Position numbers and translations under genes: made by a program | DNA from: Chloroflexota bacterium | GTDB taxonomy: Bacteria > Nitrospirota > Thermodesulfovibrionia > Thermodesulfovibrionales > Dissulfurispiraceae | Assembly: GCA_050257935.1 (NCBI GenBank) | Contig: JBLMXV010000198.1 | Span: forward strand, 1 to 15,107 | Length of the DNA stretch: 15,107 bases | Direction of reading: 5' to 3' | In this document: positions 2,195 through 5,919 of the stretch, piece by piece | Layout: every line of letters begins with the position of its first letter | How positions within the stretch are numbered: position 1 is the first letter of the stretch | Notes under the pieces: generated by a model | What the model was told of the DNA's origin: nothing | What the model saw: only the letters and a program-made list of their open reading frames with translations | Database searches by the model: none

Positions 2195-2680
2195 ATGACC
2201 TTAGCGGAGAAGATAGAGAGGCTTGTACGCCACCTGCCGGGGGTAGCGGGCTACCAGGACAGGGAGACGTCGAGGAGCACTGACAAGGTTGTTCGTCAGC
2301 GTCTTTCTGCAGAGCTCGATGAAATGGTCCGGGAGATCGAAAGGGTCAAGGCGAAGTGCGTGGATGATAAGGATCTCTCGTCCCTCGCTCTCCTGGACAG
2401 GCTTTCTACAAAGCTCGATAGGCTCTCTCAAACGGTGATGTATGCCAGTTACGGGTACGGGGGTCTTTTCGACGTCAGCAAGTTCGGCAGCGATGGGCTT
2501 GCACAGCTGTATGCCTTTGACCTCGGCCTTCTCGATGAGTTGGAAGCTGTCAGGGTGAAGGCCGGGGAACTCCGTCAGGGCGGCGAGGTGCTTAGGGAGG
2601 CCGCGGTGGAATCCGAACGGTTGCTCGATGTCTTTGAAAAGACATTCATGTCACGTCAGACGATTATCGAGGGTGGTTAG
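2195..2680 (+). CDS. Hypothetical coiled-coil protein, 161 aa, first gene of the SPFH/zinc-ribbon cassette
   Basis: Strong Shine-Dalgarno (ggaggt) 6-7 nt upstream of the ATG. Charged, heptad-like sequence (ELDEMVREIERVKAK...). Stop lies 10 nt before the next gene, whose SD (ggaggg) overlaps the stop region. No recognised family; it does not align to the PspA N-terminus. Confidence 0.7.
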   Translation: MTLAEKIERLVRHLPGVAGYQDRETSRSTDKVVRQRLSAELDEMVREIERVKAKCVDDKDLSSLALLDRLSTKLDRLSQTVMYASYGYGGLFDVSKFGSDGLAQLYAFDLGLLDELEAVRVKAGELRQGGEVLREAAVESERLLDVFEKTFMSRQTIIEGG

Positions 2681-2689
2681 GGAGGGACC

Positions 2690-3856
2690 ATGTCCGAGTT
2701 CGTGGAGATTATCGAGTGGTTCGATGAGACCGGCGACGAAATCGTTCACCGCTACCCTCAGGAAGGGTCGGCGGAAATCAAGTTCGGTGCTCAGCTTGTC
2801 GTGCGGGAGAATCAGGCCGCCGTGTTTTTCAGGGATGGCAGGGGACTCGACGTTTTCGGCCCGGGACGCCATACTCTCACCACGCAGAACCTGCCGATAC
2901 TGACGAAGCTGCTCTCCCTGCCGTGGGGATTCAAGAGTCCGTTCAGGGTCGAGGTGTGCTTCATCAATCTGAAGGTGTTCACGAACCTGCGGTGGGGAAC
3001 GAAGGAGCCGGTGGCATTCAAAGACTCGGAACTCGGGCTGATCAGGCTCAGGGCTTTCGGTGTCTTTACGATGCAGGTCACACAGCCGCTTCTGTTTCTC
3101 AATACCATCGTGGGCACGCGGGGCAGGCTTGACACCGGGTCGGTGGAGGATTACCTGAGGGAGGTGGTGGTGTCGAGGCTGACCGATTTTCTCGGAGATA
3201 CTGTCGACACCCTTGTCGAACTGCCGAAGTTCTATGACGAGATGGCCGTTGCTGTGAAGACCCGCCTGGCCGAGGATTTCCGCAAGTACGGGATGGAGTT
3301 GAGAGACTTTTACATCAGCCGCATCACGCCACCCGAGGACGTGCAGAGGATGATCGACGAGAGGTCGGGCATGGCAGCCGTGGGAAATATCGACGAGTTC
3401 TTCAAGTTCAAGGCCGCAAAAGCGATGGGTGACATGGCATCAGGACGGGGAGACACCACAGGAGGCGGGGCTGCTCAAGGGATGGGCCTCGGCCTCGGTG
3501 CAGGATTGGGCATGATGGTTCCGGGCATGCTGTACCGGGTACTCGGGGGACCTGTCACAGGTCCCGAGGTTGCAGGAAGAATGGCGACGGTCAACTGCCC
3601 CGACTGTCATGGCGAGGTGAGCCTGGACAGTCGTTTCTGTCCCCATTGCGGCAATCAGATGGTCGTGATCCGCAAGTGTCCTCGATGCAGCAAGAACGTG
3701 ACAGCCACTGCGAGGTTCTGCCCGTCCTGCGGCTTGGACCTGGCTTCTGAATTCCGCTGCCCCCATTGCCAGACGAAGCTGTTGCCAGGGGCGAGATTCT
3801 GCGTGAACTGTGGCGAGAAGATTCCCGAAACAGTGGAAGGGCGCGGAACCGCGTAG
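2690..3856 (+). CDS. SPFH/band-7 (stomatin-prohibitin) family protein of the COG4260/YdjI type with three tandem C-terminal zinc ribbons
   Basis: The N-terminus (FVEIIEWFDETGDEIVHRYPQEG...IKFGAQLVVRENQAAVFFRDG) matches the characteristic COG4260 opening (xxIEWxD...VWRFP). A Gly-rich low-complexity linker follows (GGGAAQGMGLGLGAGLGMM), then three repeats of CPxC-x(10-13)-FCxxCG (CPDC..FCPHCG, CPRC..FCPSCG, CPHC..FCVNCG). Confidence 0.85.
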   Translation: MSEFVEIIEWFDETGDEIVHRYPQEGSAEIKFGAQLVVRENQAAVFFRDGRGLDVFGPGRHTLTTQNLPILTKLLSLPWGFKSPFRVEVCFINLKVFTNLRWGTKEPVAFKDSELGLIRLRAFGVFTMQVTQPLLFLNTIVGTRGRLDTGSVEDYLREVVVSRLTDFLGDTVDTLVELPKFYDEMAVAVKTRLAEDFRKYGMELRDFYISRITPPEDVQRMIDERSGMAAVGNIDEFFKFKAAKAMGDMASGRGDTTGGGAAQGMGLGLGAGLGMMVPGMLYRVLGGPVTGPEVAGRMATVNCPDCHGEVSLDSRFCPHCGNQMVVIRKCPRCSKNVTATARFCPSCGLDLASEFRCPHCQTKLLPGARFCVNCGEKIPETVEGRGTA

Positions 3857-3970
3857 CTCACGACATAGGTACCGTCGAAGTGAAATACCCGTCTTCCATT
3901 AGTGCACGGGTGGGCTCACTCCCGTCGGCACAGGTTCGTGCCGTCCTGCGGACCCGCCCTTGAACCCCGG

Positions 3971-5494
3971 ATGCTGAAGCGCTTCTCGGTCTCTGCCGAG
4001 TGTCCCTCCTGCGGGGCTCCCCTCGACTTCAGCGTAGGTTCCAATGCGGTCAGCTGCAGCCATTGCCGCTCCAATCTTCTCATCACAGGGCGGGGCAAGG
4101 TCCTCAGCTACTGCGTGCAACCGCAACTCGACGTGCACCGTGCAGTGGCCAGGGTCATGGTGGCGCCGGTGCGCAGCGGCGTTCGTGTAATAAAACCCCG
4201 ACTCTATTTCATACCCTACCACAATTTCACGGGCTATGAGCTTCGGTGGGAGAGGATAAAGGAGACTCCTGCGGAGTCCATGCTCCACGGTGAAGGCGGT
4301 TCGTGGATGAGTTTGGACCCTGAGGAGTATACAGTGAGGCAGGTGCCGGTTGCGATCGGTGAGATAGTGGAGGCTGCGGGAGAGTTTTTCCGTGCTGTCT
4401 TCAGCAAGGGAAAGAAGGGTGTGCCTGCCGAAGATCCTCCCTGTCCTGCATCCGGGATGCAGACGGCCGCTGAATCCAAGCCTTTCCGTGGCGCGCATGC
4501 CGCAGCAAGTCCCGCTCTGTGCAGGGGTCTGCAACTTCGTGACCGCTATGTGACGAGGAGTTCCCTTGCACTCGACATGGACGGCACGGGCATGTATTCC
4601 CTCGGCGTGAGACCGGGAGTGGTGCGTCTCGAGCTCTTCAGGCGTGACAAGGTTGAGGCGCTCGGGCGTGTCGTGAGGCCCCGCGTATCCGCCGAAACTC
4701 TGATGTCACAGGTCACAGGCATGGAGACAGAACCGGAGTGCCTCTATCGCACGGTCCTTGCAAAGACGCTGTCCCTCATCTATTTTCCGTACTGGGTGGT
4801 GGAATGTGAGTGGAGGCGGGAAAGGTCCCTCACGATCGTCGATGCCGTGTCGGGATCGGTGGTGAGGCGCGACGCGTCCATCACCCTGTTGGAGATCCTC
4901 GACGAGACCGAACAGAGCGCCCCGGCAGTGGTGGGCTTCAGACAATTGATATGCCCGAATTGCGGATGGGATCTCCCCGTGAGGCCTGACGACGTGATCT
5001 TCTTCTGCTCATCGTGCAGGAAGGCGTGGCAGATACGGCAGGAAAACCTGAACGAGACGGCGTACCGCGTGGCGGACGGAGGTGACAGCGATACGAAAAA
5101 GCAGTTCCGCTATCTGCCCCTATGGGAAGTTCCATCCGTTTCAGGGGAAGATTCAGCGGAGACGCTTCCGGTTCCTGCCTGGAGATACCGCCGGCTCAAG
5201 ACACTGGTTGAGCTCGCCGTCAGGCTGTCGGGCCGGCCAATGAGCAACGCCCTGCCGGATACTCTGGTGGGCGATTTCGTAGGGTGCTACTACGACGAAG
5301 ACGATGCCCTTCTCATCGCCCGATTCGTGCGGGCAGCCCACATGGCGAAGACCGCCGAAGACCTTCTGAAAGTTTCCGAAGGCTCCGTGCAGACGGGGCC
5401 GGCATCTCTGACCTGGATCCCCTTAGAGGTGAGAGGAGTCAACCTGATCGAGCCTGTAACAGGGACGAGTCTCTACCGCGACCTCATCTGGTGA
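3971..5494 (+). CDS. Large double zinc-ribbon protein (YdjG-like), ~508 aa from the ATG at 3971
   Basis: N-terminal zinc ribbon (CPSCGAPLDFSVGSNAVSCSHCRSNL) directly after MLKRFSV, and a second one mid-protein (CPNCGWDLPVRPDDVIFFCSSCRKAW). Same strand, 114-nt gap after the SPFH gene. Start is ambiguous: ATG at 3971 has no SD, and a GTG at 3902 is possible. Architecture parallels B. subtilis YdjG. Confidence 0.7.
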   Translation: MLKRFSVSAECPSCGAPLDFSVGSNAVSCSHCRSNLLITGRGKVLSYCVQPQLDVHRAVARVMVAPVRSGVRVIKPRLYFIPYHNFTGYELRWERIKETPAESMLHGEGGSWMSLDPEEYTVRQVPVAIGEIVEAAGEFFRAVFSKGKKGVPAEDPPCPASGMQTAAESKPFRGAHAAASPALCRGLQLRDRYVTRSSLALDMDGTGMYSLGVRPGVVRLELFRRDKVEALGRVVRPRVSAETLMSQVTGMETEPECLYRTVLAKTLSLIYFPYWVVECEWRRERSLTIVDAVSGSVVRRDASITLLEILDETEQSAPAVVGFRQLICPNCGWDLPVRPDDVIFFCSSCRKAWQIRQENLNETAYRVADGGDSDTKKQFRYLPLWEVPSVSGEDSAETLPVPAWRYRRLKTLVELAVRLSGRPMSNALPDTLVGDFVGCYYDEDDALLIARFVRAAHMAKTAEDLLKVSEGSVQTGPASLTWIPLEVRGVNLIEPVTGTSLYRDLIW

Positions 5495-5499
5495 AACGA

Positions 5500-5919
5500 A
5501 TGGGAACGTATCCGGTGAGCCCGGCCAAGGAAAACCTGCTTTCAGAGCGCATGGCTGCGCTCGGAGTCCGCGAGGAAGACATTGAAGAGAGCTTCGTGAG
5601 GTCCGGCGGTAGGGGAGGGCAGAATGTCAACAAGACGTCAACCTGCGTGCAGCTCAAACACATCCCGACCGGACTCGAAGTGAAGTGCCAGAAGGAGCGA
5701 TCTCAGGCGCTCAACAGGTATCACGCACGGGTGCTCCTTCTCAGGAAGCTCGAACATCTCATCAAGGGCAGGGAGAGTGAAGAGGCAGCGCGTATAGAGA
5801 AGCTCCGCCGCCAGAAGAGAAAACGATCGAGAAGGGCACGGGAAAAAATACGGGAAGAGAAAGAGCGTGTATCGGAGAAGAAGGCTTCCCGCGCCTTTCG
5901 GACAGATCTCGACGATTAG
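5500..5919 (+). CDS. arfB: Alternative ribosome-rescue factor ArfB (YaeJ-like peptidyl-tRNA hydrolase with a GGQ motif)
   Basis: About 139 aa with the GGQ motif in SGGRGGQNVNKTST, as in class-I release-factor domains, and a strongly basic C-terminal tail (RRQKRKRSRRAREKIREEKE) typical of ArfB/ICT1. ATG at 5500 lies 5 nt after the upstream stop. An alternative ATG at 5551 (MAALGV...) aligns better with the E. coli ArfB N-terminus. Confidence 0.85.
   Translation: MGTYPVSPAKENLLSERMAALGVREEDIEESFVRSGGRGGQNVNKTSTCVQLKHIPTGLEVKCQKERSQALNRYHARVLLLRKLEHLIKGRESEEAARIEKLRRQKRKRSRRAREKIREEKERVSEKKASRAFRTDLDD

Follow-up and report, generated by a model that had tools for sequence, protein, structure and literature searches.

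A reduced and distantly related form of the Bacillus SamI/SamG (YdjI/YdjG) membrane-stress scaffold on contig JBLMXV010000198.1

The 15,107-nucleotide stretch analysed here (the window; positions 1 to 15,107 of contig JBLMXV010000198.1, assembly GCA_050257935.1) carries a cassette of three genes, g1, g2 and g3, which is conserved among uncultured bacteria, is a distant, stripped-down relative of the SamI/SamG (YdjI/YdjG) membrane-stress scaffold of Bacillus, and is a variant of a known system and not a new kind of system. The main difference from Bacillus is that the cassette has no membrane anchor and no YdjH. The conserved unit is g2 plus g3, with g1 optional, and g2 and g3 travel as a pair, in several phyla and amid unrelated flanking genes. 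SPFH proteins serve universally as membrane organisers but, to our knowledge, the YdjI/SamI branch has been studied in Bacillus alone, where its role is entangled with PspA and two integral membrane partners.

In Bacillus, YdjG and YdjH recruit the soluble YdjI to the membrane, and YdjI recruits PspA and is required for the formation of PspA foci (PMC8581546). Independently of PspA, SamI (YdjI) also holds SamGH signalling in check, and its probable form is a higher-order oligomer (2026 preprint, bioRxiv 10.64898/2026.02.06.704340). An earlier note on the window had proposed a divergent YdjI/YdjG-type module of three same-strand genes, with PspA replaced or absent. This proposal is largely right: three open reading frames (ORFs) on the + strand are confirmed at positions 2195-5494, the motifs it listed are present in the ORF calls and cysteine positions, and there is no PspA nearby in the loci examined. 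The features of the cassette are as follows.

2195-2680, + strand: g1, an ORF of 161 aa, putative accessory protein
2690-3856, + strand: g2, an ORF of 388 aa, predicted YdjI/SamI-type SPFH protein
2744-3376, + strand: SPFH (Band_7_1) domain of g2 (Pfam envelope residues 19-229, profile positions 1-210 of 211)
3452-3544, + strand: Gly/Met-rich hydrophobic linker of g2 (about residues 255-285, GGGAAQGMGLGLGAGLGMMVPGMLYRVLGG; KD19 hydropathy 1.34)
3590-3817, + strand: three tandem C4 zinc ribbons of g2 (residues about 301-322, 328-349 and 355-376)
3971-5494, + strand: g3, 507 aa from ATG 3971, putative YdjG-related adaptor
3995-4261, + strand: N-terminal unit of g3, zinc ribbon 1 (residues 9-34) and a helix/long beta-hairpin module (40-97, LYFIPYxxxTG)
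4277-4516, + strand: disordered, length-variable linker of g3 (residues 103-182; pLDDT <50 at 103-131 and 146-182)
4352-4405, + strand: conserved amphipathic helix in the g3 linker (residues 128-145, AIGEIVEAAGEFFRAVFS; from the AF2 model)
4529-4900, + strand: central alpha/beta module of g3 (residues 187-310; motifs YSLGVRP and LSxIYFPFWVVE..DAVS)
4946-5491, + strand: zinc ribbon 2 of g3 (residues 326-351, CPNCGWD...C..C..W) and C-terminal alpha/beta module (352-507; YLPFW, PAFRYRRLK)

Judged by its sequence, g2 is a YdjI-type Band_7_1 SPFH protein. It matches Pfam Band_7_1 (PF13421) with 218.6 bits (E 1e-64, cut-off 24), in line with its earlier reading as a COG4260-type SPFH protein, and BLASTP aligns it end-to-end with B. 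subtilis YdjI (26% identity, E 3e-33), the alignment spanning the low-complexity linker and the first ribbon; YdjI also matches PF13421 and has one ribbon. The N-terminus of g2 carries IEW..VHRYP..VFFRDG, and the protein has the YdjI-type architecture of an SPFH domain, a low-complexity linker and a C-terminal zinc ribbon, with no transmembrane anchor. Its three ribbons have the form CPxC...FCxxCG (Cys 303/306/317/320, 330/333/344/347 and 357/360/371/374), and Pfam DZR, Zn_Ribbon_1 and Zn_ribbon_3 each match three stretches; a sequence search of the PDB with g2 found nothing beyond the ribbons. The expanded ribbon count to which the earlier note drew attention is borne out among the orthologues, with three ribbons in 41 and two in 21 (Methylomirabilota), against one in YdjI. 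The linker motif G[MV]G[LV]G[VI]GAG[LM]GMM[IM]PGML, in short form G[MV]GLGVGAGMGMMIPGML, is kept in essentially all intact orthologues. Mean identity across phyla is 70% for g2 versus 41% for g3, and this high conservation of g2 fits a tightly packed oligomer. We note that frameshifts interrupt g2 or g3 in four loci (L008, L065, L073 and L075) from metagenome-assembled genomes (MAGs), which represent either pseudogenes or assembly errors.

The second component, g3, is related, from profile comparisons, to the cytoplasmic part of YdjG, remotely and with internal duplication. Apart from generic ribbon matches, Pfam and NCBIfam assign it to no family, a result that holds for a scan of all 67 aligned members, and its ribbons lie at Cys 11/14/29/32 and Cys 328/331/346/349. 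The AlphaFold2 (AF2) model of g3 (predicted local distance difference test, pLDDT, 75; predicted template modelling score, pTM, 0.73) has, in order, ribbon 1, a helix with a long beta-hairpin, a disordered linker, a central alpha/beta module, ribbon 2 and a C-terminal alpha/beta module. For comparison, the B. subtilis pspA-ydjGHI locus was obtained from metagenome contigs by way of the ydjG primer printed in PMC8581546; it encodes PspA (PF04012), YdjG (with a TFIIB-type ribbon), YdjH (TPM domain) and YdjI. According to Ravi et al. (PMC11237479), YdjG consists of two zinc ribbons, a YpeB-related domain and a transmembrane segment, in that order.

Comparisons of g3 with YdjG using single sequences and narrow profiles match the zinc ribbon and nothing more, and segment-wise hhalign with the 67-sequence profile reaches 63% probability. 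A family profile of 211 sequences was needed to detect the match outside the ribbons, narrower profiles being insufficient; with it, g3 225-300 aligns to YdjG 90-159 in a ribbon-free match (93% probability, E 3.5e-7), and the controls for this module match (reversed YdjG, PspA, YdjH, YdjI, g1 and g2) are at or below 1.1%. With this 211-sequence profile hhalign also aligns g3 1-100 to YdjG 52-147, which comprises ribbon 2 and the next domain (95.7%, E 1e-8, 84 co-linear columns), and g3 ribbon 2 matches YdjG ribbon 1 (E 6.5e-9 to 1.8e-6). As a common signature the two proteins have a '..VIPF.IS..EA...' helix, after which comes a 'YxPFW' hairpin. The ribbon/module unit is repeated within g3 (probability 74-81%), the ribbon 2 region resembling the N-terminal unit (74%), and the alpha/beta module is present in two or three copies. 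Foldseek found no significant PDB match for the g3 model, and a PDB sequence search with the g3 profile returned ribbons and nothing more; the closest structural neighbours of the model are the PepSY-like YpmB and YpeB, which agree with the published YpeB-related description of YdjG. With three of four YdjG features present and the transmembrane anchor missing, g3 is a YdjG relative and not a strict member. Among 1.8 billion cluster representatives, 1323 fall in the g3 family at E<=1e-3 and 164 at E<=1e-30. Five distant members of the family (P0255, P0267, P0275, P0281 and P0287; 560-618 aa) have an N-terminal GYF_2-like 'WFAYINRKLHGPYT' domain and an extra zinc ribbon, and so represent a second architecture.

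A genome scan with the g3 alignment gave 72 loci, all in MAGs, from Nitrospirota (Thermodesulfovibrionales, Nitrospiria, Manganitrophaceae, Dissulfurispiraceae), Methylomirabilota/Rokubacteria, Binatia, 'Deltaproteobacteria', Thermoanaerobaculia and others. Carriers of the cassette include complete genomes such as Ca. Manganitrophus CP114561.1 and OY970371.1. A g2 orthologue (61-75% identity by tblastn) is located directly 5' of g3 in about 62 of the 66 loci with room for it, an arrangement far beyond chance, and g1 is directly upstream of g2 in about 38 loci, or approximately half of those related. The conserved unit is the pair g2 and g3 and not all three genes; loci without g1 have an unrelated gene in its place upstream (trpC/arsC, a GGDEF response regulator, or hscA). 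The flanks are entirely different among seven Pfam-annotated neighbourhoods, and all-against-all clustering of the neighbouring ORFs revealed no further recurrent partner. Mantel correlations are significant (g2-g3, r 0.68; g1-g2, r 0.85), as is expected for any co-inherited genes, and they carry little weight. In Binatia- and delta-type loci there is an extra ORF of 272-290 aa without a Pfam match just 5' of g1 (L003 5093-5911, L078 7208-8080), which may be a lineage-specific fourth gene.

No transmembrane helix is predicted in g1, g2 or g3. The maximum KD19 hydropathy is 1.34 in g2, in the Gly/Met linker, and 1.12 in g3, no segment of which is >=1.6. The g3 linker helix is amphipathic, with a median hydrophobic moment of 0.42 in 67 homologues, and reaches in some Nitrospira homologues a hydrophobicity sufficient for a membrane segment (P0014, KD19 2.11); across the wider g3 family most KD19 peaks >=1.6 fall on the IYFPFW beta-strand motif, with a few in the linker helix or elsewhere. 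The linker helix could give g3 a peripheral membrane attachment, and the Gly/Met linker of g2 is a candidate membrane-dipping or oligomerisation segment.

The smallest protein, g1, is a facultative helical-bundle partner of g2-g3. It had been described as a coiled coil; the AF2 model is instead a compact five-helix bundle (pLDDT 88, pTM 0.83), for which the fold search returned generic helical bundles and nothing else. Conserved motifs are an N-terminal ERLVRxxPGVAGYQDRExxRxTDK and YAFDLxL. There is no Pfam family match for g1 and no informative match in a PDB sequence search with its profile, and all 21 of 21 g1 homologues match the Leptospira-specific NCBIfam model NF047596 (LIMLP_15305_fam) over nearly its whole length, weakly and well under its cut-off (best E 2e-15). 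The window g1 scores 46.5 bits (E 3.6e-12) and does not reach the equivalog cut-off of 210 bits, which indicates that g1 belongs to a family related to, and not a bona fide equivalog of, Leptospira LIMLP_15305; the sole paper mentioning that locus is uninformative. The possibility that g1 is a PspA/Vipp1/ESCRT-III analogue was rejected, as it has no PF04012 match, no long alpha1-alpha2 hairpin fold, and a PspA profile probability of 0.2%; the earlier view that g1 is not PspA-like is upheld.

What the cassette does we infer by analogy with Bacillus, and we think it somewhat more probable than the alternatives taken together that it is an autonomous SPFH scaffold and adaptor module akin to the SamI-SamG core, operating without PspA, YdjH or a transmembrane anchor. 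In such a module g2 would form a higher-order SPFH oligomer beneath the cytoplasmic membrane, like other SPFH proteins, and g3 would take the adaptor role of YdjG, its linker amphipathic helix attaching peripherally in place of the YdjG tail anchor. Docking of g3 on g2 would be through ribbon or beta-module contacts, the Gly/Met segment of g2 may add membrane contact, and g1 might modulate or cap the assembly, or be its client. The output would be the organisation or stabilisation of a membrane patch, or the regulation of a membrane-associated partner encoded elsewhere, which could be a PspA/Vipp1 homologue acting in trans.

Several points weigh against this account. PspA is missing and so is YdjH, which in Bacillus is the chief anchor and signalling component, and the Bacillus mechanism cannot simply be transferred. 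Membrane association is inferred from two elements, an amphipathic helix of low model confidence and the Gly/Met segment, and the role proposed for g1 is a guess. In four loci (L051, L072, L073 and L074) g3 is without g2 within 6 kb. Three of these (L051, L072 and L073) constitute a high-GC 'delta proteobacterium' clade in which dapA, dapB and a luciferase-like gene are followed by g3, showing that the g2-g3 coupling is not absolute.

The alternative that fares best is that the cassette is a PspA-recruiting module still, with g2 and g3 acting as YdjI and YdjG to bring a PspA/Vipp1 (ESCRT-III) protein encoded elsewhere to damaged membrane. The homology of g2 to YdjI and of g3 to YdjG is consistent with this, as are the requirement for YdjI in the formation of PspA foci in Bacillus (PMC8581546) and the repeated linkage of SPFH and ESCRT-III genes in bacteria and archaea (PMC11237479, PMC10936438). 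However, there is no PF04012 (PspA_IM30) gene within 6-10 kb in the window or in the seven Pfam-annotated neighbourhoods (L001-L003 and L078-L081), and tblastn with B. subtilis PspA finds no match in the window or in 75 loci, a search confined to these loci. The SamI phenotype is moreover PspA-independent in the Bacillus preprint (10.64898/2026.02.06.704340), and we consider PspA recruitment unlikely, if still a serious contender. The same searches reveal no PF04536 (TPM, YdjH) gene in the window or the seven neighbourhoods and no tblastn match to B. subtilis YdjH in the window or the 75 loci; the earlier note made no mention of YdjH, the TPM-domain protein that is the main membrane anchor in Bacillus.

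A bolder proposal, that g2 and a soluble, duplicated YdjG-like g3 form, in several uncultured phyla, an autonomous ESCRT-III/PspA-free membrane-maintenance machine with the LIMLP_15305-like g1 as a new effector or cap in the operon position of PspA, or alternatively a free cytoplasmic SPFH cage, seems to us doubtful. Taken by itself, a soluble cage or nanocompartment, in which g2 would form a closed vault-like shell off the membrane and g3 and g1 would serve as its cargo, plug or assembly factors, is improbable. The lack of transmembrane helices in all three proteins and the unusually high conservation of g2 across phyla would suit it, and closed 24-mer cages are among the SPFH structures cited in PMC10936438, but the characterised SPFH cages are all membrane-seated, the Gly/Met segment of g2 and the amphipathic or hydrophobic linker helix of g3 point to membrane contact, and the cassette has no linked cargo-like enzyme.

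An anti-phage or abortive-infection system, with the SPFH scaffold and ribbon protein sensing infection, might be suspected from the movement of the cassette among unrelated flanks and phyla, and from the transposases, integrase, ParE or methyltransferase-HNH gene near some loci. We regard it as very improbable, because the flanks are mostly housekeeping genes, there is no defence-island context, and none of the genes encodes an effector domain (nuclease, protease or pore-forming membrane protein). In PADLOC-DB v2, g1 and g2 have no match and the hits of g3 are ribbon-level noise (E 3.5e-4 or weaker), and PHROGs gives no meaningful match; g3 is absent from the plasmid collection and the phage collection holds two weak matches for g2 and no more, leaving the cassette absent from plasmids and nearly absent from phages. 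That the cassette is a nucleic-acid- or ribosome-associated complex whose many ribbons would bind RNA or DNA, as the five C4 ribbons over g2 and g3, the naming of g3 homologues as 'RPC12/RpoP' or 'L37AE' in source annotations, and the RNase G, RF-1-domain and S1 genes flanking it in the window (the g3 stop abutting the RF-1-domain gene) could suggest, is hardly credible, as those flanks are conserved in no other locus, the names reflect generic ribbon matches, and the SPFH partner and YdjG relationship favour a membrane-scaffold role.

The translation signals and surroundings of the cassette are as follows. The g3 gene called mechanically starts at GTG 3902 (530 aa), and the start at ATG 3971 is backed by the alignment of 66 homologues and the NCBI call. 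With this start the g2-g3 gap is 114 nt, as the earlier note gave it, and the g1-g2 gap is 9 nt and not 10. A GGAGG motif is 8 nt 5' of the g1 ATG and the g2 Shine-Dalgarno sequence GGGAGG abuts the g1 stop, as had been described; no such motif is seen in the region upstream of g3, for which one had also been claimed. A consensus scan for promoters and terminators found no sigma-70-like promoter and nothing usable. Immediately downstream is an RF-1-domain (ArfB-like) gene (5491-5919), whose GTG 5491 overlaps the g3 stop at 5492-5494 (an alternative start is ATG 5500); this tight packing suggests co-transcription in this genome, and the RF-1-domain neighbour is absent from other loci. The other genes in the window are housekeeping genes by Pfam (RNase G, ArfB-like, S1, coaD, rsmD, purN, hemE and hflX). 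A 94-aa ORF without a Pfam match (360-644) is situated between a fragment of a MetA-pathway outer-membrane protein and RNase G, and the gene calls of L001, a Logan assembly with an exact copy of the locus, include it too. The NCBI label of the contig is 'Chloroflexota bacterium' (locus tags ACM3ON_14025 and ACM3ON_14035), whereas the three cassette genes all have their relatives overwhelmingly in Nitrospirota, Methylomirabilota and Binatia; mis-binning or horizontal transfer could be the reason.

The cassette shows the SamI-SamG pair to be a portable, conserved core that persists without PspA, YdjH or a transmembrane anchor, and a SamI-SamG-like core is spread through Nitrospirota, Methylomirabilota, Binatia, Acidobacteriota and related lineages. 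It defines two protein families that Pfam does not model, the whole of g1 and g3 outside its ribbons, and offers a simpler, all-soluble system of two to three proteins in which to study YdjI-type SPFH docking and an ESCRT-III-independent role.

Among known systems, Leptospira LIMLP_15305 (NF047596), a family without known function, resembles g1 in that all 21 homologues match nearly the whole model, and differs in that g1 itself, at ~46 bits, is far under the 210 cut-off. The HflK/C-FtsH, QmcA-YbbJ/NfeD, FloT-YuaF and YqiK-YqiJ systems similarly couple the gene of an SPFH scaffold closely with that of a dedicated partner, although the SPFH proteins and partners there are integral membrane proteins, and the cassette partners are no NfeD or protease homologues. 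The pspA-ydjGHI operon, which in Bacillus is induced by envelope stress through sigma-W, is closer, but the cassette loci are without a PspA_IM30 gene and without the TPM protein YdjH nearby, two defining features, and we therefore do not file the cassette as a Psp operon.

Compared with YdjG, g3 is longer (507 aa versus 341 aa), lacks the C-terminal transmembrane segment, and has an 80-residue disordered linker with an amphipathic helix; its ribbons are apart, N-terminal and internal, each heading its own module, which implies internal duplication, whereas those of YdjG are in tandem. The relationship is detectable by profiles only (hhalign 93-96%), yet in both proteins C4 ribbons precede an alpha/beta module that contains the ..IPF..S...A.. 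helix and YxPFW hairpin, and both are encoded beside a YdjI-type SPFH gene. Compared with YdjI, g2 has three ribbons and not one, identity is just 26%, its linker is a conserved hydrophobic Gly-zipper-like motif where YdjI has a Met/Asn/Gln-rich stretch, and its gene precedes the YdjG-like gene, whereas ydjI ends its operon; the two nonetheless belong to the same Pfam family, PF13421, share the order of SPFH domain, low-complexity linker (Gly/Met in g2) and C-terminal C4 ribbon, and are alike in having no transmembrane anchor of their own.

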